A stretch of 64,000 nucleotides of DNA from Selaginella moellendorffii (GCF_000143415.4 NW_003314295.1:1426907-1490906), one strand, 5' to 3'; positions 29,501 to 63,180 are shown, counted from the first letter of the stretch. A program made the numbers and translations. The notes: generated from the letters alone by a model not told the origin.

Positions 29501-29636
29501 CAATGCGGATCTCCGAAATATTTGGCGCATTTCTAGTGTCGATCTTCATACGGCGCAGGCAGACGTGATAATGCTCGCAGCCGATCGCCACAGCCGCTAG
29601 GGCTAGCAGCAGCAGCAAAAGCAATGCCCGATGCAT
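23573..29636 (-). CDS. Secreted S8 subtilase of KP-43/TagA type with PA-like insert and ~6 C-terminal Ig-like repeats (multi-exon)
   Basis: Signal peptide MHRALLLLLLLALAAVAIG. Triad GVGDSGVD (~28770), YGHGSHVAG (~28590) and SGTSMATP (~27245), plus AAGN (~28150). Family motifs RIHSDSW, SKNSLTVGA, FSSWGPTLDGRQKP, LIRQYFMDGFYP, NQGYGRIDL, LVNDLDL and DRMNNVEQV. Repeats DTxPP..C.LD..W..C.SP..L.DG.Y.F.V.A.D.AGN. The 3' exon structure is approximate. Confidence 0.88.
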
Positions 29637-29803
29637 CGAGACCGAGATTATCGTCTAGCCGTCTCCAAAGAATGATCACATCCGAGGAGCGCCTACCCGA
29701 TTTTGCCGATGGAATCCATCAAAATGCGAGACGCTCGCCTCGCCAAAGAAATATTAGGGTTCGTCCAAGAAAAGGATATACCAGATATTATGCTCAAGGG
29801 CAA

Positions 29804-32099: not shown

Positions 32100-32638
32100 G
32101 ATCTGAAAAGAATGATAGCAGCAAATTCACAGCCTTTTATTGCCTATGAATGCCATCGACGAGGAGGTCCATGTACTCCATGTAGCAATACGAAGGGTGC
32201 TTGGGAGGCTTACCACGGCCGCCATTCTCGAGTATTTCATGATGATCGAGTTGAGCTTCACCTCAGCTTGCATGCGTACAAGAACTTCTTCATGTCGGCC
32301 TTGAGCCCCTGTCCTCCTCCGAGAGCATGAGATATCCCGAGATCTGGAGGGACTAGCAACATGGCCGTGTGTCCGATGTTTTCATTAGCAACTGCATCAC
32401 AAACGAGGCCGTGGTAATTGTCAAAGGGGCTGTGCAAAAAGCTTTGATCTTGCAGCTCTTGAAGCTGTCCATCGCTAAGAGTTAGGAAAGAAGAAGCATG
32501 AGGCCACTGTCGCAAACGATCCAGTAGAGGTCGATGGTTCCATACTGCTTCTGGTATTCGCCAGGCCACTGTCGGACAGTGTTTGCCAAGTTCCATGGCA
32601 TGCTTTATTTCTTTGAGGTAATACTTTATAACAAACAA
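32100..32638 (-). pseudogene. Coding-like fragment of unknown family
   Basis: 126-aa GC-balanced ORF without a clear ATG start, followed by a frame with stops. No recognisable motif. Confidence 0.25.
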
Positions 32639-32837
32639 AAGTATAACTTATGCAAAACATTAGTATGTTGTTGTTAAAGGATGTAAAATTCCACTTTTAA
32701 TGAGTTTGCTTGTTGGTAGAATTCAAGGGATTGCATCTCTAGAACTTGTAACAAGAGTAAAAATCATTAAAAAATATATATATATTATAATTTTAGAAAG
32801 TATATTTTGTCATAGAATGAATTAAGTGAAATAAAAA

Positions 32838-38800: not shown

Positions 38801-39764
38801 ACCCTATGTGTTTTTTGCTGAGCATACTCGGCCTGGTTTGAGAAACTTCTGTCATTGGCTTACACTTGCTAGTATCGAGAACCCCTACAATATTGAGATT
38901 AGTCCCTCAATATTGCTAGATGATAGCTTACCATGTCTGCCAAACACCCTTGCTATCATGCCCTTTGTGTTAGTCTCATTTCAGTCCCAAATGCTATTTA
39001 TGGAAAGTGTCTAGATTTGCTCATTTGGCATATCTACGAAATGTAGAGATTGTCCAGAACACAATGGTGTTCGTCCCATATCCAAATTCGCAATCTAAAG
39101 ACATTCCATATTTAGTAAGTTTTAAGCTTGTCCCAGAGACTAACTCTTGATACTAAAGGAGGCTTGGGGTGAAAGCCCAAAGCGTGTGTTCCTCAAGGGG
39201 GGGGGGGCCTGTGGGGGGTTCTAAATGTATAGTAGGGATAGTGGGTAGGTCGGGCATGGCCGACTAACCTGAGGCATAGTCTAACTCTTGCTTGCGTGCC
39301 TGTCCTTGTTTTGCATCTAGCTTGGATCTAAGCCCAAGTTCCATTCTATACTAGCTGGTGGAGTACCCATGTCCTTGCGTTAGGCCACTAGTATGCCGAA
39401 ATAGCGCCAGACTCTATTTGGCTCCGTTTTGCGTGTTGGTCCTGGCATTGGGATGCTGGTTGCTCCAGGATTGTTCCAAGTCGCTCCGGGCTCTTGTCCC
39501 TTCACTCTTTGGGCTGTATGCTCGAGAGTTGCTCCGTGGACCGGTTCTGTCACTCCTTAGCTCCATGTTTGGGAGTTTGGCGCTATTCCTTTGTTCAGTG
39601 GCCCAAGGCCCTGAACCTTGGGTTCCGCACCACTAGACTTTGGACACGTGGCATGTGACATATGGCATTTGTCACATGGCACAAAGAGGGTTTTGGTTCC
39701 GCTTCGTGGTGTTATCCTATAGTAAATCACCATAGGATAAAGGGTCAAAACCACGTGCGCTACA
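32838..39764 (+). mobile_element. Non-autonomous LTR retroelement (LARD-like), family A copy 1
   Basis: 5'-truncated LTR 32838-33642. PBS TGGTATCAGAG (initiator Met tRNA type) at ~33646. ~5-kb interior with no long ORF. PPT AGGGGGGGAGAG at 38607-38618. Full 3' LTR TGTCGTG..GCTACA at 38619-39764. Confidence 0.88.
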
Positions 39765-39809
39765 CCACCCTCCTCATATTCAAATGCATGGAATCTAGTA
39801 ATGCAGATT

Positions 39810-40140
39810 CCTACATGATATTAGCAAAGTAGGCTTTCCCATATTGGGGATATCATGTTATTTCTACTTTTTTTTATTTGGAGACATTTGGAACTTGATT
39901 TTTTATATCCATTGGTGACATGTTAGAAATTGCAATGCCTCACCTTGTCCACCTCCACTCCAACATTTTCCGAGGTCATGATATTGCTATTTTGATAGCA
40001 TTCTTTATTATATTGCCAATGACGTGGCAGCATTTGACTATCATGTCATTATTTTCTTTCCTTTGCAACTTGTCACTAATTATTGTTATGGGATGTGTGC
40101 TATTTATAGATACATTATATTTATATTTGCCCTCTAATAT
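39810..40140 (+). pseudogene. Amino-acid transporter (AVT1/AAAP-like) gene fragment
   Basis: GDMLEIAMP..IAILIAFFIILPMTW..LTIMSLFS resembles AVT1 GDNL..LFP..LIVLPTVWL.DLS.LSY. Eroded and AT-rich. Confidence 0.45.
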
Positions 40141-40619
40141 ATTTTTAATCTTTGGCTTGGCCACAACCTTTTTTACAACATCTTTAGTAGGAGTTTTCTC
40201 CCTTTAATTTGCTTAGCTAAAGGTTTCAATTTTATTAGCATAGTTCCTTATCACCATTTTTATATATTTCTATTAATAAAAAATAATACATACAATATTT
40301 TTAATAAATGGTATAATCTAACTAATCCTACATAGGATCTTTTAGTGCATATACAATTGAAGTTATAAATTTTAATAAAAGTTGGATAGAAATTATTAAG
40401 ACAATTCCTTTTATATTCAATGTAGTACCAAATTTAGAGTCAAACTCTGAGCTTATTACACTATAGAATGAGGGTCCAATACACACTAAAATCCTTTATG
40501 AGCACCAATTCCCTATATTTGGCTTCTACATGCAAAATAAATAGAATTTTCCACAATTTGAACATGTTGATAGCCTAATATAAGAAGGGGGTACCCCATT
40601 AATTAATATAGATTGAGAG

Positions 40620-40932
40620 CCTTGTTTTTTTGACACCCCACACTTTAGGTTTAGCCTAACTAGAGTAAATTAAATTGCCAAATATCAATTTCAATATGTA
40701 GTGTGATTTCCCTAGCCAACCAATAAAGTTAGATTTAAAATTATTCTAATACCAAATATAAAATTTTAAATTTAAATTTCCTAGAAGGTCACCCAACTTA
40801 ATACTACTCAAACCCAAGAATATTCTAATACCTTTAGCCGATTAAAAGAAGGGGTGCACTCTTATTCATGTTTTCCTTTATATTTGAACCCCAATAAATT
40901 TTCTCTCAAATTATTATCTTTGGTTGCTTATA
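40620..40932 (-). mobile_element. Decayed Cassandra-type TRIM remnant (part of interior plus one LTR)
   Basis: Aligns by eye with 51195-51519 (TGACACCC.., AATACCA PBS relic, AGGTCACCCAAC..TACTACTCAAACCCAAG, GGGGTGCACTCTT, TTTGGTTGCTTATA). Confidence 0.8.
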
Positions 40933-41839
40933 CTATATTTCCAACTACTATCCTAGTATATATTTAGAATCCTTAAACGTTCAATTTAAAATGTAAAATC
41001 TATTAACAATGTTGTATTGCACCTCCTTGGCAAAGATCTAAATGGAAAAAATATAAACTTATCTTTTCTTAAGGAACAAAGTGAAAGGTAGAAAAGTACT
41101 TGCAAAAGTTTAGGATGATGAGCACTCTCATTTGAATATATCTCACTATTACCTTTATTCAAATGTTGATAAAATTAAAGCTAAATATGTTTTTTAAGCT
41201 TAAAACCATCAATGTTCATTTATAATTCTACACTAAAAGATTATAGTGAAAAAAAAAACACTTTCATTTACAAATATTAACCCTATATTTAATACTTTGT
41301 CAATATCTTTGATGGCAATTAAATTAAATTTTTATTGTAGCTTGATATACATTTCCACCAGGGTGTTGCCCAAGGTTAGCTTGAAAATTCAATTTCTCAA
41401 GATTATAAGAATTGTTTACTTTCTATTGAGCTTTTCACTCAAGTAAAAATGATAGGAATCAAATATTGAAGCTTTTATAACAGCATCAATAGCTTGCTTT
41501 GGTTTGGGAGAGATGATGAATTAAGAGTGTATAAATCCACAAGAATACTTGTTATGAACATCTATAATTCATCTTGATACACTTAAACAAGTTTTTCATA
41601 TTTACAAAAAACCTATCAATTTCTATATACCAAGTATGAGTGGATGTACTTTTTATAGACAATCTGATTTCCTAGATAAGTTTTATACTTAGTCATATAA
41701 AAAACTTTGTGAATAAGGTTGCTCAAAAGGTATGTGCAAATTTAATTCTTGCCTTCCAAATTCTCGTAGAATTTATTAATGCACTATTAACTTGTGCAAT
41801 GATGAGAGCTAGATTGTTGTCCTTGATTGCTCTAAAAGC

Positions 41840-41930
41840 TTTGTTATAATGCCAAGGCATAGCATCAGAAACCAAATGGGCATCCATAATAATTTTGCAC
41901 TTGGCATATAAATCCAAAATTATCTTGAGT
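41840..41930 (-). pseudogene. PPR (PLS-class) motif fragment
   Basis: LDLYAKCKIIMDAHLVSDAMP resembles the xMYAKCGSLxDARxVFDxMP PPR consensus. Confidence 0.4.
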
Positions 41931-42174
41931 ATGTATTTTTATTTTCTTCTACAGGATTTTACTCTTGTGTAACCCCGTCTTGTACACTCGTAACCTTCCA
42001 AGTGTTAAATTTATATTCAAAGGCATAAAGCTACAAAATTCATAACGTAAAAGTATTTGTTGATTTCTACAAGAAATAGTGAGTTTTTGTAGCTAATATT
42101 TAGCATTGTAAAAATTTAATAATCTTTACAATATAATTCAGCTTGTTTGTTCACTTAACTCATTTTAGGAAGAA

Positions 42175-42399
42175 ATGGTGTTTTCTAAAAATATGATATG
42201 TGTTTTTTTGATGATTTTTACTTTAGTTGCAAGTTTTAGAGATGCAAACCTAGGAATTGTACCAGCAAGTAAGCTCTCTGAAGGTGGAGTTTTACATCCT
42301 TTAGCAGCATCTTGCTCATGTTCTACATATTATTGTGTCGATCCATACATAATATGTGATTGTTATCCAGGTTGTAATTGTTTATGTTACTCTTCATAG
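42175..42399 (+). CDS. Small secreted cysteine-rich peptide precursor (74 aa)
   Basis: Hydrophobic N-terminal signal-like segment, short pro-region and C-terminal CxCx4Cx6CxCx3CxCxC. AATAAA lies immediately after the stop. Confidence 0.6.
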   Translation: MVFSKNMICVFLMIFTLVASFRDANLGIVPASKLSEGGVLHPLAASCSCSTYYCVDPYIICDCYPGCNCLCYSS

Positions 42400-45300
42400 A
42401 AATAAAGCATAATTATGTTACTTTCTTTAAAAAATAAAGTATGATTATGAATCTATGGCTAAATTATTAACTCTTTTTACAATTCTTAAATTACAAGATA
42501 TGGTTTTCTATACTTAGTTATATAAATGTTTTTGAAAATATGCTTTAGAGGAATTTGAGTTCATTTACAAATTTGATAAAGAGGTAAATATTTTATCTTG
42601 TATATTTTCCCAGGCAGAGCAAAAGAAGGAAACTTAGACGAAATGAAGTTATGCCTAAGTTTAGGCATCCAAATAAAAAAGACTCGACCTAGGCAAAAAG
42701 CAGTTAAGAATGGTTATAAAATCATATAGTATATAAGTAGCACTTAAACGTACTGAAAAACAACCCCCACTCACTATTGTATACATATGCATTGAATTAA
42801 CCATCTTTGGAATTTGATATTGAGTTATATTCTATTCTTCTTTATTTTCTTCTCTTCTTCTTCTACGTTTTTGTTTTTGTTATTTATCATTGTTTTGTAG
42901 GCAGGAGTGAGAACGCGAGTACAAGTAGAAAAAGCCTTACTCATTTTTGGCGACTATAGTGGGATAAATTGTCATTTTTTAGTTTGAAAAATAATTAGGA
43001 GAAAATTGCTTATGAATTCCAAATATGCACAATACTAAGAATCACAAGTAAATCTCTTCAATGATTGTAAAGGCTTTGAGCCTAGACAACACTAAAAAAA
43101 GGAACTCTTTTTGCAATTATAGTGACTTAGTGCTCAAACAACGTAGGAAAGATAGTTTCTCAATTGTCACTAAAGCCACAGAGCATGGAATGAGTTTGAA
43201 ATTGAAGTACAACATACATTGCCAAAAAACTCAAATTTAAATTTTTTTACTAATAATTTCTTGAGAAAAATCCAAAAGAATAAGGAATTGTTGCGAATGT
43301 GACTTTGGGTATTGAAAGTTATTTATCGGCTAGTCCTTACGGACACTCTTTCCTTACTGCCACGATGGCAGGAGGTCGGTATTGCTGGACCCTTTATTAG
43401 TCCCTCTTGTTCAAGTGTTAGTAAATTAGACTTTGCATTTGCATTTGGCCGGACGAGCATAAAGAAGGAATTCCTAAGTGTCTATTTAGCCAAACATACT
43501 TGGCCCAGCTTGTTAGTTCTCTTTTACTTTATCTTGCACTGGCTTGACAAAAACCCTCGCGTATTGAGACTAGTCCCTCAATATCACTACATGATAGCTT
43601 ACCATGTCTGCCAAACACCCTTGCTATCATGCCCTTTGTGTTAGTTTCATTTCGGTCCCAAATGCTATTTATGGAAAGTGTCTAAATTTGCTCATTTGGC
43701 ATATCTACGGAATGTAGAGATTGTCTTGAACACAATAGTGTTCGTCCCATGTCCAAATTCGCAATCTAGTGCTATTCCATATTTAGTAAGTTTTAAGCTT
43801 GTCCCAAAGACTAACTTCTGATACTAAGGGAGGCTTGGGGTGAAAGCCCAAAACGTGTGTTCCTCAAGGGAAGGGGGGGGGGGGGGGTTATAGGGGGTTC
43901 CAAATGTATAGTAGGGATAGGGGGTAGGTCGGGCATGGCTGACCAACCTGAGGCATAGTTTAGCTCTCGTTTGCGTGTCTGTCCTTGTTCTGCATTTGGC
44001 TTGGGTCTAAGCGTAAGTTCCATTCCATGCTAGCTGGTAGAGTACCTAAATCCTTGCATTAGGCCACCGGTATGCCGAAATAGTGCCAGACTCCGTTTGG
44101 CTCCGTTTTACATGCTGGTCCTGGCATTGGGATGTTGGTTGCTCTAGGACTGTTCCAAGTTGCTCCGGGCTCCTATCCCTTCGCTCTTTGGGCTGTATGC
44201 TCGGGAGTTGCTCTATGGTCCGGTTTCATCACTCCTTGGCTCCATGCTTCGGAGTTTGGCACCGTTCCTTCATTTAGTGGCCCAAGGCCTTGAACCTCAG
44301 TTCCACACCACTGTCCTTTGAACATGTGGCATATGACATGTGGCATGTGTCACGTGGCATAAAGAGGGTTTAGGTTCCACTTCATGGTGTTATCCTATGG
44401 TAAATCCCTATAGAATAAAGGGTCAAAACCACGTGCGCTATATTTGGTATTAAAGGATACTTCTCAACGAGTACTATTCAATGAGATTGGGCAACTAGTC
44501 TCATTGCATACGCAGAGATGAAAACGATGATCCGAGTGGGTATACGTTTGGGTGCAAAAGGCTTTACAATCGTTCCTTGGGTATGGATTTGGTTAGCTTG
44601 TTGTACCATGATGATGTGAGCTTGCTCTTGGGCTCATAGGATGGATTTGAGATGTTCCGTTCACACAAGTTTGCGTTTGGGCTCGTGAGTGAGGCACATT
44701 AACAACTAAAGGTTACACTTTGAGTTGGCAGGATTAATGTTAGCCTATCAATGGTTCCATGAGTTGTTCCATGTACCATGGGTAAAAGCAAACCTTCCCT
44801 GAGTTTACTATGAGTGGCAAATAGGATGGTCCGTAGCTGTTTAGCACGGCACTAGTGGATCCTTCCTAGGCATGATTATAAGTGGATCAATTAAGATTGT
44901 AAGGAATAATCTATTGGTTCAAGCAGTCATTGCCATGCTCTCTCATAAACTTTTCTTGGGTTGGACTAAAGGCAATGTGAAAGTAAGCTTGAGGTTTGGT
45001 CAAAGATGAGACCGAAAAGAGAGTCATTAGGGACGAATGATCAAACACGTAAATCATCTTCCCTTTTTGGAAAGATGATTTGCAACGAGGTGTTAACTCA
45101 TTGCTCGTGTTCATATATTATGCCATCAAGAGTCCCTATCTTGATGCATTTTGGAGATGATGGTTTTACAAATGATGAGTTTATGGGGTGGATAGTGGTG
45201 AAGCGCTAAACCATTTTATCTAAACTTGCTATTGGAAGACTTAGGTTGCAATGCTCAATTCTTTTCTAGAAAAATCTTGCTATTGCTCCTTGAGTGGCTT

Positions 45301-46537
45301 GGTGTTGGATTAGTTTTGAGTTTGGTTAGAAAAAGAGTGGTATGAGTTTATCCATGTTGTGAATAAAAGTTAGTGGTGTTGGGTGTTATAAATCTCTATC
45401 AGTGGAGTGGTAATGCGAAAAGCTATAAGCCATTAAAGAGAACAACTAACTATCATGAAAGATCATCAATCATCCCATCAATAAAGAGATGTATAATCAT
45501 CATCGAAGAAAGAATCTACCATCCCATAAAATGGCAAATCATTCTATATTAATAATAATCAAGCAAAACTCTTGACAAGGATAATCAACTATCTTAGATG
45601 ATAGTCAATCATCACCAATGATTGCCAGATACAAATACTAACTTCAATATTGAAGTTAACAAGTTAAAATGCCTTCCCCAATAACTTTTAACAAATGAAA
45701 CAATGAATATAAAACTCAAAAAACCAAAAGCTTGAAGAAGTCTATAGCCAAGTCTTGCTTAGTAATGATCATAAGTCTCGCATGAAATAACTTTAATGTT
45801 AAAGAAGAAAATCATAGTATAACCCACAATATCCTCCTCAACACATCGATAAACTAAACTTCATAATACCAAAGCTAATGAAGAGCATGTTTGCATCAAT
45901 CCAAAAGTTAAGCATAATGAAGCTATGCTCAACAAATGATTACCAAACGATCCTCCAGAAATCCATCTATAGCAAAACGTAACTTACTTCATAGCAAATA
46001 TAAGAAGAATCATCAATGATCAATATATCCTAACTCAAATCCTATAAGGATTTAAACGTTTCAATATCGATCACTAACTCTTCCGCTTGTAGAGTTAGCA
46101 TAGTCCACGACTGAATCACTTTTCAAGGAAAAGCCAAAACTTAACCCCTACTAAATAATCTTGTCTAGAACACAACTAACTCAACTTGCTACTTAGTTCA
46201 GTTGAATGTCAATACAGTTGCTAACTAGCAAATGCATGAATGTCAGTAACATAAAGCTACAGCCACATCCTCAACACTATCTTCATCAAGACTAATAAAA
46301 CTTGCCATCAATCTTTCAGATAGACATCTCATTTCACTCAAATCTCAACATCAACAATATTAATAACAAGGCATCATTTCAATGCTATCAACACCATAAC
46401 AAAGCTAGAAGAAACAAGAGTGAATCACCACTCAAAACTCTCTATCAACTAAGCTAACCAAGGTTGAAGATACTTTACTCAACCAAGACTAATCCTCCAA
46501 CAATACTTAGTTACAAATAACACATCATCAAGGAGTG

Positions 46538-47685
46538 TGTCGCGAATGTGACTTCGGGTATCAAAAGTTACCTGTCGGCCAGTCTTTTCGGATATTCTTT
46601 CCTTACTGCCACGACGGTAGGAGATCGGTATTGCTGGACTTGTTATTAGTCTCCGCCTAAGCTAGTTGAGAAATTGGTCATCACATATGTACTTAGACCG
46701 AAAGGGCACTAAGGAAGGAAATCCTAAGTTGTCATTTAGTCAAGCATACTTGACATGGTGATGAGAAACTCATGATGTTGGCTTGCATTTGCTAGTGTTG
46801 GGAACCCCTGCGATATTGAGATTGGTCCCTCAATATTCGCTAAATGATAGTTTACCGTGTTTGCCAAACACTCTCACTATCATGCCCTTTGTGTTAATCT
46901 CATTTCGATCCCAAATGTTATTTATGGAAAGTGTCCAGATTTGCTCATTTGGCATATCTACGGAATGTAGAGATCGGCCTGAACACAATGGTGTTCGTCC
47001 CGTGTCCAAATTTGCAATCTAGCGCCATTCCATATTTAGTAGGTTTCGAGCTTGTCCCAGAGACTAACTCCTGATACTAAGGAAGGCTTGGGGTGAAAGC
47101 CCAAAGCGTGTGTTCCTCAAGGGGGGGGGTTATGGGGGGTTCCAAATGTATAGTAGGGATAGTGGGTAGGTTGGGCATGGCTGACCAACCTGAGGCATAG
47201 TCTAGCTCCCGCTTGCGTGCTTGTCTTTGTTTTGCATCTAGCTTGGGTTTAAGCCCAAGTTCCATTCCATGCTAGCTGGTGGAGTACCCATGTCCTCGCG
47301 TTAGGCCACTGGTATGCCGAAATAGCGCCAAACTCCGTTTGGCTTCGTTTTGCATGTTGGTTCTGATATTGGGATGCTGGTTACTCTAGGATTGTTCCAA
47401 GTCGCTTCAGGCTCCTGTCCCTTCGCTCCTTGGGCTATACACTCGGGAATTGCTCTATGGTTCGGTTCCATCACTCCTTGGCTCCACGCTTGGAAGTTTG
47501 GCACCATTCCTTTGTTTAGTGGCCCTAGGCCCTAAACCTCAGGTTCCACACCACGTTTCTTTGGACACGTGGCATGTGACACATGGCATCTGTCACGTGG
47601 CATAAAGAGGGTTTGGGTTCCACTTCGTGGTGTTATCCTATAGTAAATCATCATAGGATAAAGGGTCAAAACCACATGCGCTACA
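46538..47685 (+). mobile_element. Solo LTR of family A
   Basis: TGTCGCG..GCTACA, 1148 bp, flanked by TSD GAGTG (46533-46537 and 47686-47690). The empty site is visible in copy 1 at ~36400. Confidence 0.92.
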
Positions 47686-48003
47686 GAGTGATTCACCACA
47701 TCCAAGACTCAATGAAATCCAACACCACAAACTAAATACAACCAAATGATATTAATAGAGGTAGAGTCGATATGCCAACAAAGAAAACCCATGTAAATCT
47801 AACAACACGACCCTCCACAACACCATCCAGTAAAACAAACCCATCACTACTAAATCACCATCGAGTCAAGTAAGTGTTAAAAGTCCTTGACGAAGTCTAC
47901 AAGTAATCATTAGTTGCAAAGTAACTAACAATCACTCTTCAACTTGCCTTCACAAGACCCAAACACTAAACTCTTGCCATTGAGTCATATACTTGTCCAA
48001 CAT

Positions 48004-48165
48004 TGTAACGCATGTGATCATGGGATGAGATTTGGATATACTGTCACCGTGGATCCTTGGAACCTTGGGGGATAAATGGGGATAAAATAACCACTAAGAG
48101 CTCTCTCATCAAGCAATTGCTCTTTTTTCAGTTGGCTTAAGGGGAGAGAGATAAAATGGGCTATA
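48004..48165. mobile_element. 162-bp insertion, probable small solo LTR
   Basis: TGTAACG..GGCTATA flanked by TSD AACAT (47999-48003 and 48166-48170). Absent from the homologous site at ~36090. Confidence 0.75.
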
Positions 48166-50925
48166 AACATGAATGTAATACCCCAAGCATGAGATAAAGG
48201 TTTATGGACAAACACAAACTAAATAACTACTCGAATTCAACTCAACTATAATAAGCTCACTAACACATCTAGTCAATAGCTCCAAGCATGCCTTGGCTAT
48301 ACATGATCAACACTGAGTTAAAATTAAAGTGAAGACCACGAGATGGATTCATATTGGTACACAACCTCCTTATAGACAAGCCATAGTATGGGTACCAACA
48401 TCTCAACCTTAAACAACTAAGTTGGACATCACCATCCTTAGCTAGGGTGCAGGGCCACCAAGACCAAGTCAACATCAGTGAGAGTTCACTACTCTCATAG
48501 AGTCTTAACGAAATGCAAGGTGCAACCTGCTACCAAGCAGAACACTATAAAAGAAAGGCATAAGGGTCACCTTTCTTAAAAAAGCGCAATAGCCACTTTT
48601 CTACATAAACTCCAGACTCTATCCAACTCAATTACCTTAGCTCCAAAAGTCAGCATCCCTTTCGGGTTGTATCATACAAACTACTTATTAAGGTTTTAAG
48701 CCAACCGAAGTCAACTCCAACCCCTTCACTAGTTTGTATTAACTTACGAAAACGAAATGGTTTTCGGATAAAGTGATCAATAGATCAGCCATTGGAAAAG
48801 CCTAAGAAAATTTGTGGAAAATTTTCTATCCTAGAGAAAGAATAACTTTTAGTCCAGAAATACAAACTTCCAAGACTCAACAAACTTCCTCCTACTTACA
48901 ATTTCACATAGATTCACCTCAACACCAATTCTCATGACCCATAGTATGTTTAAGCTTTGAACATTTTTTTGCCCATACTTCCGACATCTAACACCAACAT
49001 CCGCAAACATAAAAATGAACATCCAAGGCTTGATCACGAAGACCACTTCTTCGGATATCCATATTGCATTAACACTCTTTTTCAGTCACCTTCAAGATAC
49101 AATGTGAAGCCAAAACACTAATAAGAAAAATGACATGGAAAATCAAGTTTCAAAGAAAATTCCTCATCACTTGAACAACAATGCCACTTCCACTAACATA
49201 AGTGCTAGTGATGTCAATGCCTCAACTACACACCTTCTCCGTCCAATAATCTACTTCAAGTGCTAACGAAACAACCGACAAGCCATAGCAAGTGAATGCT
49301 ATAACCCTTTCCAACACCTTATAGGCCAATTCTCAAGGAAACAACGTACCAACTTAAGCTTAGCATAATGGACCACCATCGAAAATCTAATCAAAGCTAC
49401 TACAATGCTACTACATGCAAGTAAACTAGCTTCACTATTAACCACTTTGGGGTTGATCATCGTTTGACCAAGCAACTTCGTAAACACATTGCTCATTATC
49501 ACATGGATATGATATAGAAATCACAATGACTTGATCATCAATTGAGCAACACCACGAGCGATGTCTATGTCGTTTCTTCAAAGGTTTATATGAGTATCAA
49601 GTGCAAACTCGATTCGACAAAAATGCCATACATATACTTGTAAACTACAAATTTTTTCTTTCCAATTTTCCAGCTTACCTCGTCTATCCGTCCAACACTG
49701 CCTTGGCTTTTGCTAAGTTCCCTTACCAAAGTTCCTGCATATGGTACTAGCTCCTACTTGGTTTCAGCTACTCACTACACGAGCAATAGAGTGTTAGCCA
49801 TCCATCCACGGATTCCCAAATCTCTCTCAATCCCCCTCCCCAGGTTAGGCTGGACTTAAGGTTCGGCTACACTCCCCACAAGCACAAGCAGCTAAGCACA
49901 CCAAGCTTCCAGGTTCCTAACATCCCTTGGTACCATAAGACTTGATCATGGGACCCTCTAAATCCCAAGTCTCGGGTACAACCCTTGCTTCAGGACGCCA
50001 GGGCGAAACACCGTGGCATAACGGCCCGGTATGGGTACCTCTACCCCCCCACTTTCATCCCGAAGGGAAGGTCCAAGCCCCTAGGAAGGGCGAGGACCAA
50101 TGAGCCGCATGGTACTCAAGTGGGGCACCACTCCACATGAGTCGGGAGCACCACAGTCGGTTTCCCTTTCGGGAGTGGGAGCTACTCTTGAGCACTTCCT
50201 GGGATGGCCCCTCCAGCACCAACCAAGTCCATGCTCACTTCCACCCAAGGCCCCTCGGTCCCAGTCCCAACCTCAAGTCAGTTTGGAAGCCCCATTGAAG
50301 AGTTCCTTCAAAACTGGTTCTTGGACCTCACTATCCCTACTATACTTTTGGAACCCCCTACAGCCCCCCCCCCCCCCCCCCCTGGGAGACGCACGCTTTG
50401 GGTTTTCACCCCTTGACCTGTATTAGTACTCGGACTTAGTCTCTAGCTCGATCTCTGGCTCGATCTCGGACTCGATCTTGGATCTGACTTCGGATTCGGT
50501 CTCGGACTCAATCTCGGACCTGATCTCGGACCCGATTTTGGATCTTGGACTCGGTCTCGAACTCGGTCTCCGAGTTGGTCTTGGACTCGATTCCGGACTC
50601 TATCTCAAACTCAGTCTTAGAGTTGGTTTTGGACTCGATCTTAGACTTGGTCCCATCCGATGAACTCTTTATCATTTTGGTCATGCTTTCGGGGCTCCTT
50701 TAGCCTACGACACCTCGGCGAGTTAGTTCCTTACAACTCCACCACCCATAGAAGAAGTTCGATGCCCATATCGAACGTCTCTTTTTTATCCTACGACTTG
50801 TTGACCATGTCTTCGGGGGCATCCCCCCACTTAACGGTGTGCCTAAGTTAGCCTCCCCGGCCAAGAGCCCATGACAACGGAATATAGATGTCCCTATACT
50901 CCTCACCTCACCACGCCCTAGTATG

Positions 50926-53424: not shown

Positions 53425-56077
53425 TTAATTGAGCTTTGCATAAGTATATAGAGTTCTGCCTTGCAGAAATTCCTCCATTAGATCTCGCGCGTTCGGTAGG
53501 TTCTCCTCTGGTTCCCATGTTGCTTCGCAGTGTGGAAATCCTTTCCACTTCACATGGAACTTTCTCACCTCGCGTCCTTGTCGCTTGCTCTTGCGCGCAT
53601 TGAGGATGGCCTCGACTTTGTATTCCTCTTCCCCTTGGATAACCTCAGGTAAAGGTCTTACTTGGTCCTTGCAAAGCGGATCCTCAAAATACGGCTTGAG
53701 TAAGTTCACGTGGAACACGGGATGCATCTTCCCCATCTTTCGAGGAAGTCGGAGACGGTAAGCCACTTTACCGATTCGAGCCTCAATCTCGTAAGGCCCC
53801 GCGAACCTACTTAAGGAACTCAAGATCAATTCATTTATAGGAATACATGCATTTTTACCTTTGGGTCAACTTCCAGCTAATCCCACTTGGTAGCCTGAGG
53901 TTCTTGGTGTTCAGCCACACCTTCTCCCTAGCTTGGAACTCTACATCCCGGCACTTCTAGTTTGCGTACTTAGTTTGCCTTTGTTGAGCTCATTCCAAGG
54001 AATCCCTCACTAGATTCCAGATGTTGAGTCTTTCCGCCGTGAATGCCTCCACTGCGGGTAACTCTCCATGATACTCGGCCACGCCGAATTCCACAGGACC
54101 TTCAATAGCTCGCCCATTGATGACTTCCCATGGACTCACCCCGATGCTCGAATATGGTGAGTTGTTATAACACATTTCCGCAAGTCCCAAATGACTTACC
54201 CAATCGGTTTAGTCTTTCGAGACATAGCATCGCAAATAATCCTCCAGCTACCTATTCACCCTTTCCGTTTGTTCGTCTGTCAAGAAGTGTTAGTACCATC
54301 AATCTTGACTTAATACCCATTACCTGTCTGTGGGTGATAGGCTATGCTGAATTTCAACTTGGTGCGATACTGTTCTAGGAGTGTCCTCTAGAACCTACTG
54401 GTGAAGATCTTATCTCGATCTGAGATAATCTTTTCCGGCCTCCCCCGCACTCAAACCACTTGTTCGAAAAACAGCTTCGCCACACCTTCCGCGTCCACTT
54501 CCGTTGTGGTGGGTATGAAATGTGCCATCTTCGAAAATCGATCCACCACCACGAATATCGCATCGAACCCCTCGCTTGGGGGAAGTCCCGTGATGAAGTC
54601 CATCGTAAGACATTTTCACAGACGATCTGGAATTGGGATGCTTTGTAACAAGCCCCCACTAGCCTTAGTCACGGCTTTGACTTGCTGACATGTTGAACAT
54701 GTCTTTACATAGTCTTGGACATCCTTAGCCATATCTGGCCAGTGGTACTTTCTCTTGAGTAAACCCATTGTTTTGGGCACTCCGCCGTGTCCCGCAAGAG
54801 GTCCGTCATGACACTCTTCTAAGGCTACCTTCCTTAGTTCCCCTTCTGGAACATACACCCTCGTTTGCTTGTAATATATGAGTCCGTTGCGTTCCGCATA
54901 GCCCGTTTTCTCTTCCGTTGGCAGCTCACCTCTCTGGTGAGCTTCCTGTGCCTCTAGATTCCTCAGCAACACTTCTTGTGCTAGACCATCGTTCTCGTAT
55001 GCGGTCCGCACATCATCCCAAAAGGTTGCCGTCACGCTAGATATAGCCAACTTCAAGCTCGCTTTTCGACTTAGCGCATCTGCCACGATGTTGCTCTTCC
55101 CAGGCTTGTACAGAATCTCGCAATCAAACTCGGCCAAAGCATTGGCCCACCAACCTTGTTTTCCCCTCAAGTCGGGCTGTGACAAGAAGTGTTTCATTGC
55201 CACATTATCCGTGTAAACCTTGAAGTGTCTCCCAAGGTAGTGTTGCCACTCCTTGAGCGTTTTGACCACCGCAAACAATTCCTTCTCATGGGCAGGCCAC
55301 TTCCGTTGAGCCTTGTCCAACTTCTTCGAGAAGAACGCTACTGGATGGTTGTCTTGCTTCAAAACTGCGCCCAACGCAAAGTCTGAAGCATCCGTTTTTA
55401 CCTCAAAGTCTTTACCAAAGTCTAGTAACACCAACACGGGAGCCTTCCTCAACTTCCCTTTGAGGTGGACGAATGCCGCCTCGCATTCCGCTGTCCATAC
55501 CATCTTCCCTTTTCCCATTTGGTCTGTTAAGGGTAGGGCTACTCTCGAATAATGTTTGATAAACTTTCGATAATAGTTGCATAGCTCCAGGAATGCCCTT
55601 AACTCATGTACATTCGATGGTCGCTCCCAATCCTGGATCACTTGGACCTTCTCAGGGTCCACCTTGAGCTCGTCCTTGCCCACCACATGCCCGAGAAACT
55701 TCACCTCTTGCTGAGCAAAGTCACATTTGCTCTCTTTAGCATACAGCTGGTGTTCCCTTAGTTTCTCAAACACCTTCGCCAAGTGTTTGGCATGCTCCTC
55801 TAGCGTTTCGCTATAGATCAAGATGTCGTCAATATAGATGACCACAAAGTGATCCAGATAGGGTATAAAGATATGGTTCATCAACGCCGAAAACGTTGCC
55901 GGCGCATTGCATAGCCCGAAGGGCATCACCAGAAACTCGAAGCTCCCATACCTCGTTCGACAGGTTGTCTTCTCGACATCTTCCTCTACTACCCTGATTT
56001 GGTAGTATCCTAACCTGAGGTTAATCCTCGAGAAGTATTTTGCCTTTCCCAACCTATCGAACAAGTCCTCAATCCTT
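53425..56077 (-). mobile_element. Chromoviral Ty3/Gypsy pol (RT-RNaseH-INT-chromodomain), 5'-truncated
   Basis: Motifs VMPFGLCNAPATF, YIDDILIYS, TDASDFALGAVL, HDGPLAGHGG..CSTCQ, GPYEI and chromodomain YKVEAIL..KWKGFP..ATWEPEENL. Integrase core is frameshifted. The sequence breaks off at RIEDLFD (~56077). Confidence 0.95.
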
Positions 56078-56453
56078 GAAGCTCTATTTCGTTAAAGTGG
56101 GAATTGTCATTATCCCACTTGTAAAATAAGGTTTCCAAACCTTTATATAGTATATAAATATAACAAAATTCAACTGCATTGAGGCACATGCCATTTTATT
56201 TTAAACAAGGAAATGTCTACTCAATCACTTCTCACTGCTTCACCTCTCTCTTCTCCTTGTCATCGTCGTCCAATTTCTTTCCATCCTTTTAATATTGGCT
56301 CAGTTGCTCCGAGTCTAGGTGGAGCCCAAGTCCCCATTCAATCTTTACTTTCCCCTTATTAATAAAACAACTTCGTAGACTTCCAATAACATGCTGTAAC
56401 ACTTCTAGTATAATGCAAATCCTCTCAAAGAATTGTCTTTTAATATTAATACA

Positions 56454-59400
56454 ATGGCATGGAACCCCATGCCATAATAAGTTACATTTTTAAATAAATA
56501 CATGCCATCTCAGACTGTTATTTTTTGCCTCCAACGCCTATACAATAATCTTGGAATTTCATCACTCTCCACACTATCAGGATTTAAACCCAATAGTAAT
56601 GCCATCTCTTCTCTAATACGTCCACGCTCATGTTCAGTGGTCGAAGAACCCATCCGGTTGAGCAGATTATGGAGATGCGGATAGTGCTTGGCTAGACAAT
56701 ATACATGCCATAAATGATGACTGGTGTCTGTCCGATCAAATGGCTTCTGATATACCGTTCCATCTGCCATTTGGTTGATTTCTGCAGCCACCTCCTGGAC
56801 TGGCCGGTTCTCTATCACCATCGCTTCAAGCCGTTTTGCAAGGTCCCCCAGAACATACGGTTTCTTCTCCCTAGTTTCCATATTGCAAGAGATGGGGTGC
56901 ACTGCATATGTGTGCGTGTTCGCTGCAGTTTTAATCGGCGAGTCATCGATGATGAGGATTTCACTTGACCTAGCAGTCCGGTTCATCACTACAGCCTTTG
57001 CCTTGACGAAGATGGGCTTGCTACCCCTCACATGGACCATAGTCAAGCAATCCTCCTGCGTTAGGAGAAAGTCAAATGGTAATATTACTCGCGTCTGATC
57101 GTGCATCATCTGTAGCAACGTTAATGCATTGTGGCGCATCATGGATGTCCAAACTCCCAATTGCAAATTGAACCCGGCCCTCTGTTTTAAGTGTCGCATG
57201 GTCATTATTAGATCCCGCAGTTTCTCCCGTGTGATTAATGTGAATCTGTCTCTTTTGACCAACTTGCGACTGCAGGCTTTGGAGGGTGCAGTGACATTCG
57301 AGGACGAGCCACGCTCATGGGAGAAAAGGACACCGTTCAGATCAAAAACGATACAGTACTTTCGCCGTGACTCTGAAATGAAATGCGTTAGCATAAAAAA
57401 TGGTACAAGTCAATTTTACCATCTACAATATTAGCGAATGGTGCTCCCGATGGTCGTTCAGAGGGTTTTGGTCGAGGAAACGTGAAGGGCGGAAATACTC
57501 TCCTCTGCAATGTGGGGTCAATCGCATCCGATGGCGTGTGGGCACATGCCATTTCAGCTGTAGACTCTGGTACAACTGGCTCAACAGTGGCATGGGGTGG
57601 TTCCGATGGCGTGTGATCACACGCCATTTCAGCTGGTGCCTCCATTGGCAAAGTGGACATGACCGAACAGGCAGCAGGGGCGGTGTAGGGAGGTTCCAAC
57701 GGCGCGTAGTCAGACGATTGGGCACATGTTGAGTCCGTTGGAAATGAGGATACGACCGGCTCGGCGGCTGGGGCGGCCTCATGCGAGTCCAATGGCGCCT
57801 GGTCACCGTCAGTTGGATACGTGGACAAGATTGACTCAGTGGTATGGGCAGCATCAAGTGGAGCGTGGTCAGCTTGCTTGGCGTTGATATGGATAGTAGC
57901 CTCCACCAGCTCTGATGACTCTTGCAGGCAAGTAGAGTCCACTGGCGGATCCATATGCATGTCCAAATATCTCCCTTCGATTGAGATGGTATCCTCCCGT
58001 GCTACTAAAAACAAACTCATTAGCACATTGAATCGACTATACTGTATTTACCATCAACTGCTATTGAGGAACTAGGACCGATATCACTTGGGCGCACTGC
58101 TGATTCTGAAGGATTGGACATACGTTTCGACCCTTGCTTGGCACTATCCTTCCTCGACACTAAAGGCTAGAGTTTGTATCTTAATTCAACTGAATAATCT
58201 CTACTTACCATTTCTTCTGCGACCTACATGGACAATGTTAGAAATGGTAAAAGGTTAGGAATGGATGTACTATTATTTACCTGATGGTTTGTCTTGTATG
58301 ACCTTCCTCCGCTGCTCTTTGGCCACCTCAGGCTGGCCATCATCGTCATCATCGTCATCGTCGTTATTGTGATCGTCACCATTGTGAGGACCATCCAAGT
58401 CCTCTTCGTCCTCCTCTTCTTCGTCCTCCTCTTCGTCCTTCTGCTCTTCCTGCTCATTATCTTTCTCTGGCTCCTCATCCCCCTCTTGCATTTCTTCCAT
58501 AGGCTGCTCAGGCTGGATTGCTTGTTTTTCCAGGACCATCTTGGAAAAATCATCTGGCCGAGTCTCCATCTCAAAATACAAGACATCCATAGCCTGTTTT
58601 AGTGCGTGACCTAGGACCGTATCCTCACCCGACTGTCTTAACATGGTTTCTGCACGTTCTTGCACCCTTCGAAGACGACGAGATGAGAAAAACGTGGCCC
58701 TGACTTGAAAAGCATCCCTCATCCATTGTACCTCTCCATTGAGATTGGGGAAGGGGAGTCCGCCATAGGAATCTGAGTCAGAAGGTGGTGACTGGCTCCT
58801 TTCACTCAGCCCTTGATCTGCAATGAATGGCATGAGCACACACGCCATAACCGCGAGGCATTACCTATCATCTTTTCGTTGCCCTTCTTCCTTTTCGAAT
58901 CAAACGCCTCTGATCCCGACGACTGTCCAACGTGCTTTCGCTTTTTATGACCACTGTCAGTTTGAGCTTGGCTGGTGCTTGCCTGTTTTGCCTTTGAAGA
59001 AGTGTCTCCTGCAAGGAATGGCATGAGACCACACGCCATTGCAAATATAATTTGTACCTCCTTTTTTCCTATTGCTTGTCTGTTTGTCCTTCTTCGACGC
59101 GCCACCAGTGCGCTTTTCAGTCCTCGTGTCTGAATATTCACAACGATCTATAATCAAAATGGCGTGAGGCCTCACGTGACCTTACCTTGTGCAGGTTGTG
59201 ACCTCGGCCTAACATCAGTAGCTGTTAACGCCGTTTCAGCATCTGGGGGTGGCCACGCTCCTGCATACAGAGCTTGTGAGATAACATTTAAACTTAAAGT
59301 GCGTACTCACCAGGTTCGTAGAGAAGATACTGTTTTTCTTTGGCAACTGTAATTATATGCTCCATTGAAGTCACCTCTTCAATGGAGTTTGTCACCGCAA

Positions 59401-62400
59401 CACACGGGACACCCTTGAGTAGTGCGGCTCGAAAGAATAGTCCGCCGCAGTTGTACTCGACAACGCATTTGCCCTTGGAGTCACCCGCTATTGCATTGAA
59501 GACCCAGCTGAGCATTTCCCATGCTGCACCTGGAGCTTTCTTTGGATTCGAAAGCTCCATAGCCGTCTTCAGTTCCTCAGGCACGGGTAAATTGACCTCC
59601 CTCAGATCAATTCGATCGGCTTTGTTGAACGAAGCTGGGAAGTCACTCCAGTCCCACTCTGCTGCAGGACCAATAACAAGGGCGACTGTGAAGATGCGGA
59701 CATTCGTCGGTATCTTCTTCTTAGCCATTATCCCATGGATCTCCCGCATCTCCTTGCCTTTCAACCGAGCCTTCACCTCGTTCAAGGCCTTCCAGAACTT
59801 GTGATAGGATTCGGAGTCGTAGATCATATAGTGGACTGAAGATTCCACCTTCGCAAGTCCCACCATTAAGTCAATGATGGAGCTGACTTCGTCTGCATGA
59901 GTGATCTCCTCGTTTGTGAAGTCCATCACACAAAAGATGTTCTTGACCTGCTCATCTCCGCGGGAAACGATGCTCCTCCACCTTTGATCCTCATCCGAAT
60001 TCACGTATACCCGGTAAGGTTCTCAATAGGCCTCTGCTGCGGGGTCGAGCTGTTTCTGAAGCCGGCGGTCGACATCCCTCTTAATGAAATTTGGATACTG
60101 ATCCAACTTTTCAGCTTTACTTTTCGTGGCATCCCGCAGCAGATCGATGAACTTGGGGGCCCCCTTCACGTACTCGTCGATGTCTTCATTTGACAAATCC
60201 AGCTCTTCCATCATCTCTTGCGTGGTGTCGATGCTCACCCTCGCCACGGCCACTTGCTCGAAGATCCAATCCTTCAATAGCGCACGAGCTCTCAGAGTCG
60301 TGCACAAGTCCTCGTATGTCACAATATGGCCGGGAGTCATTTTGGTCTTGTTGAAGACTACCTCACCACGTAGAAGAGCATTAGCCACTGTCAGAAGGTC
60401 GTCGTCGTCTAGAGACCGCGAGAAACGCAAGGCGTTGAGCTTCAAATCATTGGGCTTCCGGCCGTCCTCCACACCCATTGAGTTTAGCAACTCCCCGTCA
60501 TGGTACCTTCTTATCACATCTACCCATTTGTCAAAAACAACTTTTGTCGCGAGTAGAATGTTATGGATGCTGAGTGTGTCATTGACCCCCAGTGTTTTCG
60601 AGAGAAGACACGAGAATTCCTGCAATGGAAATGGCGTGAGGCCACATGCTATGCCACATGCAACGAGGCTTACCTGCCAGGCGCTAGTTGCTAGTGCACA
60701 TCCTTGTCCTGGTTTTTGTGGCTTCTTCAGTTGAACCCAGAGCTTCCGTGTTCGTGCCAATGTCTCGTGCAGACCCGATTTGTAGCACGTTTCTTGCTTG
60801 ACATTCTGCGCGTGGGAGATGTATATGATAGATCGGAGGGGCGAGTTGCCTTTTATCAGGCGGACAACTCTTGTCTTGAAGACTTTCTTCACCTCCTCGC
60901 CCACCATAATATCCACAACTATCTGTTGCATCGCCAAGCTAGAATGCTGCCCGGAGACGGCATAGAACCGGATGTTCTGATCGTCCAACACCTTCCTATT
61001 GATCAAGTCTGGAAACCTCGTCTCGCCCTTCATTGTTCGGTAGTAGGGGATCACGTCTACGATGTCGGGTGTTACTGGACTTGCCAGCATCTTCTGCTTC
61101 AGTTTCTCCACCCACTCATCAGATACTAGCCTGTGGTTGTATTTGCTTTGGATCTCGATACGGCTCACGTCGATTGTATATACTTTGTTGGAATAGTAAC
61201 AAGTACTATTATCTGCGACGATTTTTGCTGCCTCTTCTTGCTCTTTCTGCTCTTTGCGGCTCTTCTTTTTGGTGGGTGTAGTGTTCGAACCCGAGGCAAT
61301 GGCATCACCGAGTAGCTTCTTTTTTGGAGCAGCAAAGTCGGACGTCGGCTTGAGCTTGACCACCCTTTTCTGCTTCGGGGTAGTTTCCAGATCGACCCCC
61401 TTCCCCTTCGCTTCGCAAACTGGAGGCACTCTCAACGGCTCAATGTTGGAATATAGTTTTTGAACATCGCCGTAGGTGAGGTCCGTGGATTCCATGTGAT
61501 CTTCATAGACCCGCAGCGTCTTTGAAATTGTGGGCCTCCTGGACAACCTCTCCCTAGCTCCCTCTAGGAATTCCTCATAGCCGCTGCCCCCCTCCGGGAA
61601 GCCGCTAGGATGTGCAAGGTGGATCTTGAAGGCGGACGTTGTCTCTACCACAAGTGCCAGTCCATATTCTTGCATGGAACTGCATGGAGTGTCTGTCACT
61701 TGGATGAGGATCCCCATGCATTCTTTTCTCCCACCATCTGTGTTGTACAGCATCAGATCCTCGCCTTCCATCCCGAAAGTCCAACTGGTGAGCTCCTCCC
61801 CCTTCTCTGCATCCACATTGACAGTGGCTGGAAGAAGAACGCAATTCCTCGCCTGTTCAAAAATGCACAACAATTAGAGCTGACAGATGAAAAGCTAGCA
61901 GCTGGAAATAACGTGAGGCCACACGCCATTCACCACTGCATCAGATGTCTTGAGGCTGCATCCTAAGATGGCGTGAGGCTACACGCCATCTGTAACCGGA
62001 CTGCACTCGAGAGCCCAATCGGTGCATGCCAATGTTGCTACTGAATGGCATGTGGCCTCATGCCATTTTCTACTTCGTCTAAAAGACTTACCATTTGAAG
62101 CCGAATGGAGGCCGTGACAATCGAGGCCGGACTCGCTGGCGAATGTGCACTGTGTGTGCAGCGGATCGTAGCAGCAAGGCTACTCTGCCACTTACAGTTG
62201 GAGAGTGGTGCTGAAATCTCCCGGGACGCCAAGTGGGCTGCGTGTGGGTGGTGGAGTGGGCGGCGGAGTTGGCGGCGAAGTTACAAACTGGGTGTGTCTT
62301 GAAGTGGACGCCGATGCACACGAGCGCGAGTGGACGCCGATGCACACGAGAAACCTGTAGAGAAGTGAGCGTGATCGCGAGTGGGAGCGCGATGCGAGCG

Positions 62401-63180
62401 GGAGCGCAAGTGTGATGCGAGCGCGAGCGCGAGTGTGCGAGCGCGAGTACAAAGCAAAATGCAAAACCTAACCTCACACGCGCGAAATGTCACAACGGTT
62501 GGTAATCCCGCCACGTCATCATTCCTCGGACTTGGGCGCCACCATTAATTTCTGGATTGCCGCGCGCATGCAAGCACGCAAAATCCAAAAGAAATCCGCA
62601 ACGTCATCATTCCTCAGACTGCATGCACGCGAAATCCAAAAGAAAGATCATGATTGGGATATCATTTAATACCCTCACTATATTTATACCATGCATGATT
62701 GGATATTCCAAAGCATCTTGTATTTCCAAAAATGGCAGATGTTCAGCTAAATAAAGAAATTCTATCTGTTTCTATTTTTCTCTCAAATCAATATTATAGC
62801 ATGCAATTTTGAACCAAAGAAACCCAAAAAACGTTGGACCCAAAATATTTTGAAAAAACCCAAAAAACCCTAAACATTTTAAACCCAAAAATCCAGGCGT
62901 CCTGTGGCGTTATTCCTTGAATGGCGTGTGGGCGCATGCCATTTTCAGGGCCAAATGCTGAATGGAGAAAAATTCCCTTTCAGTGCAAATGCTGCAAGAG
63001 GCAGATGCCGAGCACAAAAGACTGTAACTACCTCACATGACACAGATAAACTTTTCTCTATTTGGCAAAGATAAACTTTATAGCGTGTGGGCTCATGCAA
63101 TTTTGAACCCAAAAAATGCACCAAAAAATTCTCGGCGTCATCTGGCATTATCTCTTGAATGGCGTGGGGCCGCATGCCAT
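56454..63180. repeat. Dispersed 22-bp palindrome ATGGCRTG-N6-CAYGCCAT (at least 13 copies)
   Basis: Copies start at 56454, 57531, 57606, 58827, 59018, 59159 (partial), 60631, 61908, 61968, 62045, 62921, 63080 and 63159. Confidence 0.92.
56510..62094 (-). CDS. Predicted 11-exon ~1,630-codon gene: ParB/Srx-like domain, degenerate amino-methyltransferase-like domain, acidic/NLS linker and FCP1/NIF-like HAD phosphatase (one in-frame TGA)
   Basis: Hand-spliced exons: ATG 62094-62092; 61852-60674; 60619-59311; 59260-59186; 59129-59058; 59008-58865; 58817-58281; 58223-58209; 58159-58052; 58004-57420; 57372-56510. All introns are GT..AG and frame-preserving. The phosphatase motifs IVFDLNGVL, GVWTS, TQEDC, KPIFVK and IIDDSPIK are clear. 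The ParB and MTase calls are weaker. Confidence 0.72.

Follow-up and report, generated by a model that had tools for sequence, protein, structure and literature searches.

A decayed ParB-like, methyltransferase-like and FCP1-like fusion gene in a likely DNA transposon of Selaginella moellendorffii

In the brown alga Ectocarpus the transposon Sola1-1_Ec32 carries a gene for a 1,104-residue protein that fuses ParB to an N4C/N6A methyltransferase, and which is proposed, in the part of the report drawn on here, to bind its own element (PMC12477816). A gene of related build lies on the minus strand (56510..62094) of a 64,000-nucleotide stretch of DNA from Selaginella moellendorffii (GCF_000143415.4, NW_003314295.1:1426907-1490906), which as a whole is called the window and from whose first letter all positions are counted. 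It is a dead copy with a conserved, unannotated three-domain architecture (ParB-like, methyltransferase-like and FCP1-like), and belongs as a variant to a class of transposon accessory genes that was recognised only recently. The reading that we favour, on balance and with some reserve, is that this is a spliced gene, likely a transposon accessory gene, whose intact product would recognise palindromes of its own element and would use its other two domains as binding modules.

The Ectocarpus protein resembles that of the window in being a ParB-like and amino-methyltransferase fusion within a eukaryotic DNA transposon. It differs in coming from a brown alga, in having a methyltransferase that is predicted to methylate and an element whose transposase is known, and in that the sections consulted mention no FCP1 domain (PMC12477816). 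A second likeness is to the red-algal Plavaka accessory genes PAG2 and PAG3, which are ParB-like, occur with inverted-repeat arrays and are mobile among transposon families, with arrays adjacent to PAG3 in the portion of the Bostrychia preprint used here (bioRxiv 10.1101/2025.02.11.637652). According to the same portion, PAG3 instead has a 2-oxoglutarate oxygenase as its fusion partner, and the methylase is encoded apart from it, by a gene that includes a SET domain (bioRxiv 10.1101/2025.02.11.637652). As there described, the PAG repeats form tandem arrays beside the gene, whereas the palindromes of the window are scattered over introns, an exon and the flanks. Both the Sola1-1_Ec32 and the PAG proteins are likened to the window protein by description and not by sequence comparison.

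More distant counterparts are found for each part of the protein. Bacterial ParB/Spo0J, Noc and KorB (PDB 7bm8, 6t1f, 7nfu and 8qa9) have a ParB/Srx fold at the N-terminus and a helical domain after it, as is predicted for the Selaginella protein, and in both cases palindromic sites lie on the same DNA, whereas the Selaginella gene is a spliced eukaryotic gene with extra domains and reads SGQHS in place of GxxR; no ParA gene was seen in the window. The front two domains have a prokaryotic form in cyanobacteria, where four of 31 ParB frames (L099, L100, L102 and L103; 427-460 residues) are ParB-methyltransferase fusions. The PF01555 methyltransferases, which include phage ParB-methyltransferase fusions and Marchantia DN4MT1, have a fold and a motif order (IV before I) that the window protein would share, to judge from the Selaginella homologue P0003, but their PPY and FxGxG motifs are kept by neither the window protein nor the relatives seen. 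The FCP1/SCP phosphatases of the RNA polymerase II C-terminal domain (PF03031) resemble the last domain, which scores above the Pfam cut-off and keeps the first aspartate and the DD motif, but differs in having DLNG(V/L) rather than DxDx(T/V) and in closing a protein that a likely transposon carries. A ParB-HTH fused Dam family is reported from chlorophytes and chytrids, with land plants having few such enzymes, in the part of the source seen (PMC4738411).

An initial annotation of the locus had called the three-domain architecture unrecognised. For the ParB and methyltransferase parts this does not hold, as their fusion is in print for algal transposons, at least in the sections consulted (PMC12477816); for the FCP1-like addition it does, the literature searched holding no report of an FCP1 fusion or of a DLNG variant. 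A search for ParB-like proteins in the land-plant literature gave the Bostrychia preprint as the single relevant item, and supplements of the algal papers may list plant homologues. Only three things go beyond print, namely the FCP1-like addition, the family in land plants and the palindrome array described below.

A spliced gene interrupted by a stop codon

The gene and its lesion are placed as follows.

56510..62094, minus strand: spliced gene of 11 exons, a pseudogene in this copy
62094-62092, 61852-60674, 60619-59311, 59260-59186, 59129-59058 and 59008-58865, minus strand: exons 1-6
58817-58281, 58223-58209 (exon 8), 58159-58052, 58001-57420 and 57372-56510, minus strand: exons 7-11
60025-60023, minus strand: in-frame TGA at codon 593, in exon 3, a lesion of this copy

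Joining the exons across ten GT..AG introns gives 4,887 nucleotides, which is 1,628 codons and a stop. Intron 1 measures 239 nucleotides and the other nine 47-57; phase 1 is shared by the eight consecutive introns 3-10, and exon 8 has just 15 nucleotides. The splice structure of the hidden gene of about 1,630 residues that had been proposed at the outset is thereby reproduced, down to its intron sizes, phases and microexon, and the translated model contains the ParB-like peptides, basic clusters, D/E tract and DLNGV that had been pointed out. The open frame that was claimed for it is not, and an intact protein from this copy is ruled out by the TGA at codon 593, which had been overlooked.

Support for the individual introns varies. 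Intron 2 is supported by homology, its removal giving a higher BLAST score against all four of the homologues tested. Moreover, five homologue gene calls from three clusters, which cover the ParB part only, stop at W-K-V, the very junction of intron 2, which suggests an intron position in common among the homologues and points to these short records being truncated gene calls. Introns 3-10 are proposed from sequence signals and the keeping of frame alone. The acceptor of intron 1 is used in one contig, of depth 4, from a public run that is guessed to be RNA (X20), with the donor at 61924 and not at 62091 as in the model. This alternative donor (intron 61851-61924) sits within a palindrome copy. 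The same run also has an unspliced contig covering the intron-1 region. The start codon is uncertain because the donor differs and because the frame 5' of 61924 runs into a stop at 61981 in this copy. Another run guessed to be RNA, X19, still contains intron 10 and the greater part of intron 1 and could be DNA instead; no run among those listed is recorded as RNA.

The TGA is taken as a lesion of this copy because in homologues of five clusters the protein continues across it: 13 of 24 aligned homologue rows, from those five clusters, have residues on both sides of the codon-593 column. As its frame is read, this copy is unable to make the full-length protein, which the TGA excludes. The possibility that splicing removes the stop was weighed and dismissed; the eight frame-keeping GT..AG candidates differ from the other introns in that all are 84-126 nucleotides long and their acceptors are rich in purines, and the homologues carry residues there.

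It might be supposed that the TGA is family-wide, with the locus making a ParB-only protein of 592 residues and the downstream exons being a decaying or separately used remnant. Several homologue records do cover the ParB part only, and codon 593 of other copies is not among the differences listed between this copy and the public-run contigs, beyond which there are 58 more rows, among them five from X6 and four from X19 for contigs that span the TGA. We consider a family-wide stop very unlikely all the same, given that the five homologue clusters read through it, that 1,035 codons 3' of the TGA remain open over eight introns, that the W-K-V ends mark the ParB-only records as probable truncated calls, and that a single transition from CGA or TGG would be enough to give TGA.

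Three domains and their relatives in seed-free plants

The predicted product would be divided as follows, from its N-terminus.

61400..61852, minus strand: N-terminal domain with approximate limits, fold not assigned; the homologues P0004, P0008 and P0027 align with it loosely, by eye, at their own N-termini
60785..61204, minus strand: ParB/Srx-fold domain (predicted model, structure comparison), with SGQHS at the bacterial GxxR position
60287..60769, minus strand: helical domain spanning intron 2, which can be superposed loosely on the central domain by which ParB, Noc and KorB bind DNA
59311..60022, minus strand: beta-class amino-methyltransferase-like domain, with MDFT (no PPY) at the motif IV site and VEYNCGG at the motif I site
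57420..59260, minus strand: low-complexity linker with basic clusters, a D/E tract, a Pro/Ala-rich stretch and the 15-nucleotide microexon
56912..57358, minus strand: FCP1/NIF-like HAD domain (Pfam PF03031) with DLNGV and IDDSP

Homologues come from seed-free plants. A phmmer search with the 634-residue stretch from ParB to methyltransferase against 1.84 billion representatives gave 13 hits with an expect value (E) of 0.001 or less, from which P0002 and P0006 were dropped as repeat artefacts. Those named are from Selaginella moellendorffii itself (P0003, P0015-17), the fern Adiantum nelumboides (P0012, P0027) and the liverworts Calypogeia fissa (P0007) and Riccia sorocarpa (P0014); they are 17-31% identical to the window protein, occur at several loci per species and are all annotated as hypothetical or unnamed. 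The fern protein P0027 (1,125 residues) aligns from the ParB part past the TGA (E 2e-15) and has NIF at its end (E 7.3e-17); its linker is short and its methyltransferase part ends before motif I. As modelled, the fern gene thus has the same domain order as the window gene, so that the expectation of the same architecture elsewhere in seed-free plants is borne out. Word-seeded searches gave no hits among 6,126, 7,419 and 984 candidates, scans of metagenome and viral contigs gave no homologue, and tblastn against phages and plasmids returned only matches with E of 2 or more. One genome hit, L004, was rejected as antisense to a cyanobacterial gene.

A ParB/Srx fold is predicted to be present in the front half. 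Folding of the protein as a single sequence gave a predicted local distance difference test (pLDDT) score of only 32.5, whereas with the 24-row homologue alignment (from which P0012 is absent, P0020 being in none of the alignments) the scores for the ParB and helical regions are mostly 70-90, the ParB/Srx domain ranging over 53-90 per ten-residue block. When the model was compared with 48,161 solved chains, the top eight (PadC, KorB, pNOB8 ParB, a serine kinase, two sulfiredoxins, SbnI and Atu1540) all belong to the ParB/Srx superfamily, in keeping with the ParB/Srx pattern noted at first; the best unrelated chain has a Z of 5.8. PadC matches with Z 9.3 and a root-mean-square deviation (rmsd) of 3.3 over 100 aligned residues, and Caulobacter ParB with Z 10.3 and rmsd 2.4 over 97, covering model residues 9-141. 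Longer matches reach model residue 307-316, over the DNA-binding domain, with rmsd 5-12 (6t1f: Z 8.9, rmsd 5.4, 161 aligned). In Foldseek the first 11 PDB rows are ParB, Noc or PadC, and 14 viral matches have E of 0.001 or less, the best (4.4e-5) being to a Spo0J/ParB-like protein; the liverwort homologue P0014 has ParB_N clusters in five of its seven rows.

A profile of 31 cyanobacterial ParB frames does not detect the single sequence, the ParB region scoring no better than shuffles and 62 of 461 scored sequences scoring higher, and a family ParB profile was blurred by insert columns and gave irrelevant top matches. The arginine patch motif of ParB is GxxRxxA. At the GxxR position, aligned with GERR, the window protein and all seven of the tested homologues that cover the site have SGQHS, SGLHS or DGQHT; by alignment, the catalytic arginine patch is altered, in the relatives too.

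The methyltransferase-like fold is predicted by way of the Selaginella homologue P0003, which is linked to this domain at E 6e-5 and has N6_N4_Mtase models in eight of its ten Atlas rows. A family profile agrees with this, as reference methyltransferases fill the top ten places among 1,302 frames (86 of them such enzymes), with a best E of 0.021 and several near-duplicates among them; together these favour the methyltransferase-like call. A profile made from 34 viral methyltransferases does not detect the single sequence. Beta-class enzymes have the catalytic motif [DNS]PP[YF] and bind S-adenosylmethionine with FxGxG. Neither PPY nor FxGxG is present in any family member examined by alignment: motif IV reads MDFT, LDAA, ADLR, CDSA or LDAT, its aspartate being kept in all five covering clusters, and motif I reads VEYNCGG, VEYGCGG or IDINTGG.

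Two pieces of the linker were scanned against Pfam, and no family reached its cut-off in either. The last exon matches PF03031 above the cut-off (E 2.8e-6; 27.6 bits against 21.8), which agrees with the FCP1/NIF assignment and its DLNGV variant; a PDB sequence search of this exon gave no match. DxDx(T/V) is replaced by DLNGV in the window protein and by DLNGL in the fern proteins P0027 and P0012. All three sequences retain the first aspartate and the DD motif, and all three have asparagine at the second aspartate of DxDxT, which serves as the general acid/base. The enzyme activity that the domain names would imply is therefore not sustained, the catalytic motifs of the methyltransferase, ParB and FCP1 parts all being altered.

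Since the catalytic motifs are altered in every relative seen, a non-catalytic binding role would suit both the methyltransferase-like and the FCP1-like domain. The opposite view would be that the intact protein of this same accessory gene is an active writer, a rebuilt methyltransferase site marking the DNA of the element and the FCP1-like domain dephosphorylating RNA polymerase II or a chromatin protein. The kept aspartate of motif IV would fit this, as would the kept FCP1 nucleophile aspartate and DD motif. We nevertheless regard an active writer as unlikely, because PPY is absent from every row, motif I varies freely and the putative acid/base of the FCP1-like domain has become asparagine. 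The described systems point both ways, for in the portions consulted a modification of their own sequence is proposed for the algal relatives (PMC12477816; bioRxiv 10.1101/2025.02.11.637652) and the liverwort Marchantia has a working N4C methyltransferase, DN4MT1, but one that keeps TSPPY (bioRxiv 2021.02.12.428880).

A palindrome array within a probable mobile element

Two features of the locus, the palindrome array and the element end, had both been missed in the first account.

56454..63180, no strand: twelve 22-bp palindromes, ATGGCRTG-N6-CAYGCCAT
56454, 57531, 57606, 58827, 59018, 60631, 61908, 61968, 62045, 62921, 63080 and 63159: starts of the twelve palindromes
56173 and 59159: two weaker palindrome copies
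56079..56094, minus strand: element end, from public-run contigs, with its junction to the interrupted gypsy gene at 56079/56078
56095..56120, minus strand: 8-bp stem-loop, 16 nucleotides inside the element end (z -3.12; 2 of 200 shuffles fold as well)
54616..56078, minus strand: Ty3/gypsy pol fragment (reverse transcriptase, RNase H, integrase zinc finger), the insertion target

When the whole 64 kb was searched for the palindrome with at most two mismatches, 12 matches were found, all in 56454-63180 and none elsewhere, against a mean of 0.05 in 100 shuffles, none of which reached 12. All 12 fall within the 7.9-kb neighbourhood of the gene, where introns 1, 2, 5 and 6 together hold six, exon 10 holds two and the flanks hold the other four. 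The two in exon 10 (57531-57552 and 57606-57627) encode a repeated peptide, EMAC.HTPS, and the palindromes of introns 2, 5 and 6 each form, with their right part, a branch-point-like CTCAY 19-21 nucleotides before the acceptor.

The palindromes may be bound by something other than the ParB-fold protein. Subterminal repeats bound by the transposase are common in plant DNA transposons, and the array could serve the transposase of the element or a factor encoded elsewhere, the ParB-fold gene being unrelated cargo; four of the palindromes do lie in the flanks, and the ParB arginine patch is altered. This explanation seems to us rather improbable, since eight of the 12 lie within the gene, in introns and coding sequence and away from an end, and since a spaced palindrome is of a form that suits a dimeric helix-turn-helix protein. 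In addition, red-algal elements have inverted-repeat arrays beside ParB-like genes, in the part of the preprint available to us (bioRxiv 10.1101/2025.02.11.637652).

The mobile-element setting that had been proposed is upheld by a sharp end within a gypsy gene, by near-identical copies and by methylation-type decay. The match of the gypsy reverse transcriptase to the Pfam RVT_1 profile covers positions 59-204 of 205, the first 58 being missing and the match starting at the junction. At 56079 a contig of run X4 stops and an X6 contig starts to match, and X6 contigs that come from the gypsy side part from the window at 56078, their letters beyond that point being presumably, by eye, the missing reverse transcriptase motif. 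Half or more of the sequence words are found in 18 of the 24 runs listed, and near-identical copies of the element exist in public runs. Depth in X6 over the unit is roughly 40-165, within 2.84 million assembled letters, and is not a copy number; it suggests a high-copy repeat. Hence the gene lies in a repeated mobile element, likely a DNA transposon.

X6 has two indels within exons, of +12 and +15, and both keep the frame. Apart from two rows that fall in the gypsy part, the list holds 38 differences, all inside the element. In 27 of them this copy shows C>T or G>A, and 20 of these 27 are in CG or CHG against a background of 35%; the coding differences listed comprise 24 nonsynonymous and eight synonymous changes. 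Judged from these differences, a methylated copy has here decayed neutrally.

A domesticated host gene family, with the repeat features being incidental, would also account for homologues that span lycophyte, fern and liverworts and for introns as short as in a compact plant genome. We give this little credence. The gene lies inside a gypsy reverse transcriptase gene with a sharp end, its decay is neutral and of the methylation type, and its homologues are only 17-31% identical and present at several loci per species.

A possible class for the element is hinted at by its end, which is GCTT in minus-strand and AAGC in plus-strand sequence. In the sections of the literature consulted, HLE1 elements (canonical Helitrons) have a 3' hairpin with CTRR or a 5' TC (PMC11417382), which this end lacks, HLE2 elements (Helitron2/Helentron) have a stem-loop just inside an end finishing in TT (PMC11417382), and Replitrons too have a right-end hairpin (PMC10288648). 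Insertion between T and T is a further trait of HLE2. The stem-loop and TT end of the window would fit HLE2 Helitrons or Replitrons, with the second end outside the window. The window differs from HLE2 elements in being without a terminal inverted repeat partner or a RepHel gene, the other end lying beyond it. A search of 62-64 kb for a terminal-repeat partner gave nothing beyond palindromes and one 10-nucleotide AT-rich match, no long frame is present in 62.2-64 kb, and Rfam gave nothing in 55.5-64 kb.

Several further observations concern the element and its surroundings. A 4,929-nucleotide X4 contig shares only the 24-nucleotide element end (56079-56102), at its own end, and a palindrome (62044-62067), near its start, which suggests a second element family with the same terminus and palindrome. 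A 40-nucleotide piece (62159-62198) is matched by an X20 contig of depth 1052, and by X6 and X19 contigs; it resembles the 3' part of plant 25S rRNA, reversed, and is possibly a captured fragment. Near 63.7 kb about six plant telomere-type 7-mers stand beside a 63-nucleotide unit that is repeated at 62952 and 63701. Farther away, 32600-49600 holds four copies like long terminal repeats and an inverted duplication (34.6-37.5 kb and 45.4-49.6 kb, 78-93% alike). Host genes elsewhere in the window (15410-16705, 18083-19207, 22256-23419, 24600-29650 and 30400-31300) are for an AP2/ERF factor, two tandem purine permeases, a subtilase-like protein (by eye) and an M18 aminopeptidase, the last of which has short introns. 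Such genes and short introns would suit a seed-free plant with a compact genome, as Selaginella is.

A proposed role for the intact protein

In the favoured reading a ParB-like dimer would bind the 22-bp palindromes much as ParB recognises parS, as the fold, the shape of the site and their co-location would allow. The methyltransferase-fold domain would then most likely be a non-catalytic module for binding DNA, PPY having been lost across the relatives, and the FCP1-fold domain most likely a non-catalytic module for binding the phosphorylated tail of RNA polymerase II, given its lost second aspartate. By analogy, the protein may mark the copies of its own element and help to keep them transcribed or mobile against host silencing. 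The copy in the window would have been methylated, have decayed by C-to-T change and have gained its stop.

Several points weigh against this reading. The differences listed leave codon 593 in other copies uncovered. Searches of Pfam, NCBIfam, PHROGs and PDB sequences gave nothing for the ParB or methyltransferase parts, Foldseek gave no PDB match at E of 0.001 or less, and the superpositions of the helical domain are loose. The methyltransferase region of the protein's own predicted model has a pLDDT below 50, only one of the eight N6_N4_Mtase Atlas rows for P0003 meets the naming bar, and P0027 comes from automatic gene prediction and has no motif I in its methyltransferase part. The overlap of palindrome and CTCAY in introns 2, 5 and 6 offers another reason for the retention of the palindromes there, and neither a transposase nor a second element end is present within the window, to whose edge the element runs.

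The family has been missed by Pfam for two of its three domains and is annotated as hypothetical. Its FCP1-like domain, which is common to the fern, hints at a link between transposons and the phosphorylation of the RNA polymerase II tail, a link not found in the literature searched. A more far-reaching version, which we hold to be doubtful as it stands, would see an accessory family across seed-free land plants in which a phage-type ParB-methyltransferase was made into a parS-guided self-recognition protein with an FCP1-like trap for the phosphorylated tail of RNA polymerase II. If so, rolling-circle-type plant elements would gain a sequence-specific anti-silencing system that is independent of VANDAL/VANC, and the first such system to act on the polymerase and not on DNA methylation. 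The locus is a land-plant candidate with both halves of such a pair, a predicted ParB-fold protein and a sharply defined 22-bp palindrome, and because it gives both, the idea of self-recognition is directly testable.

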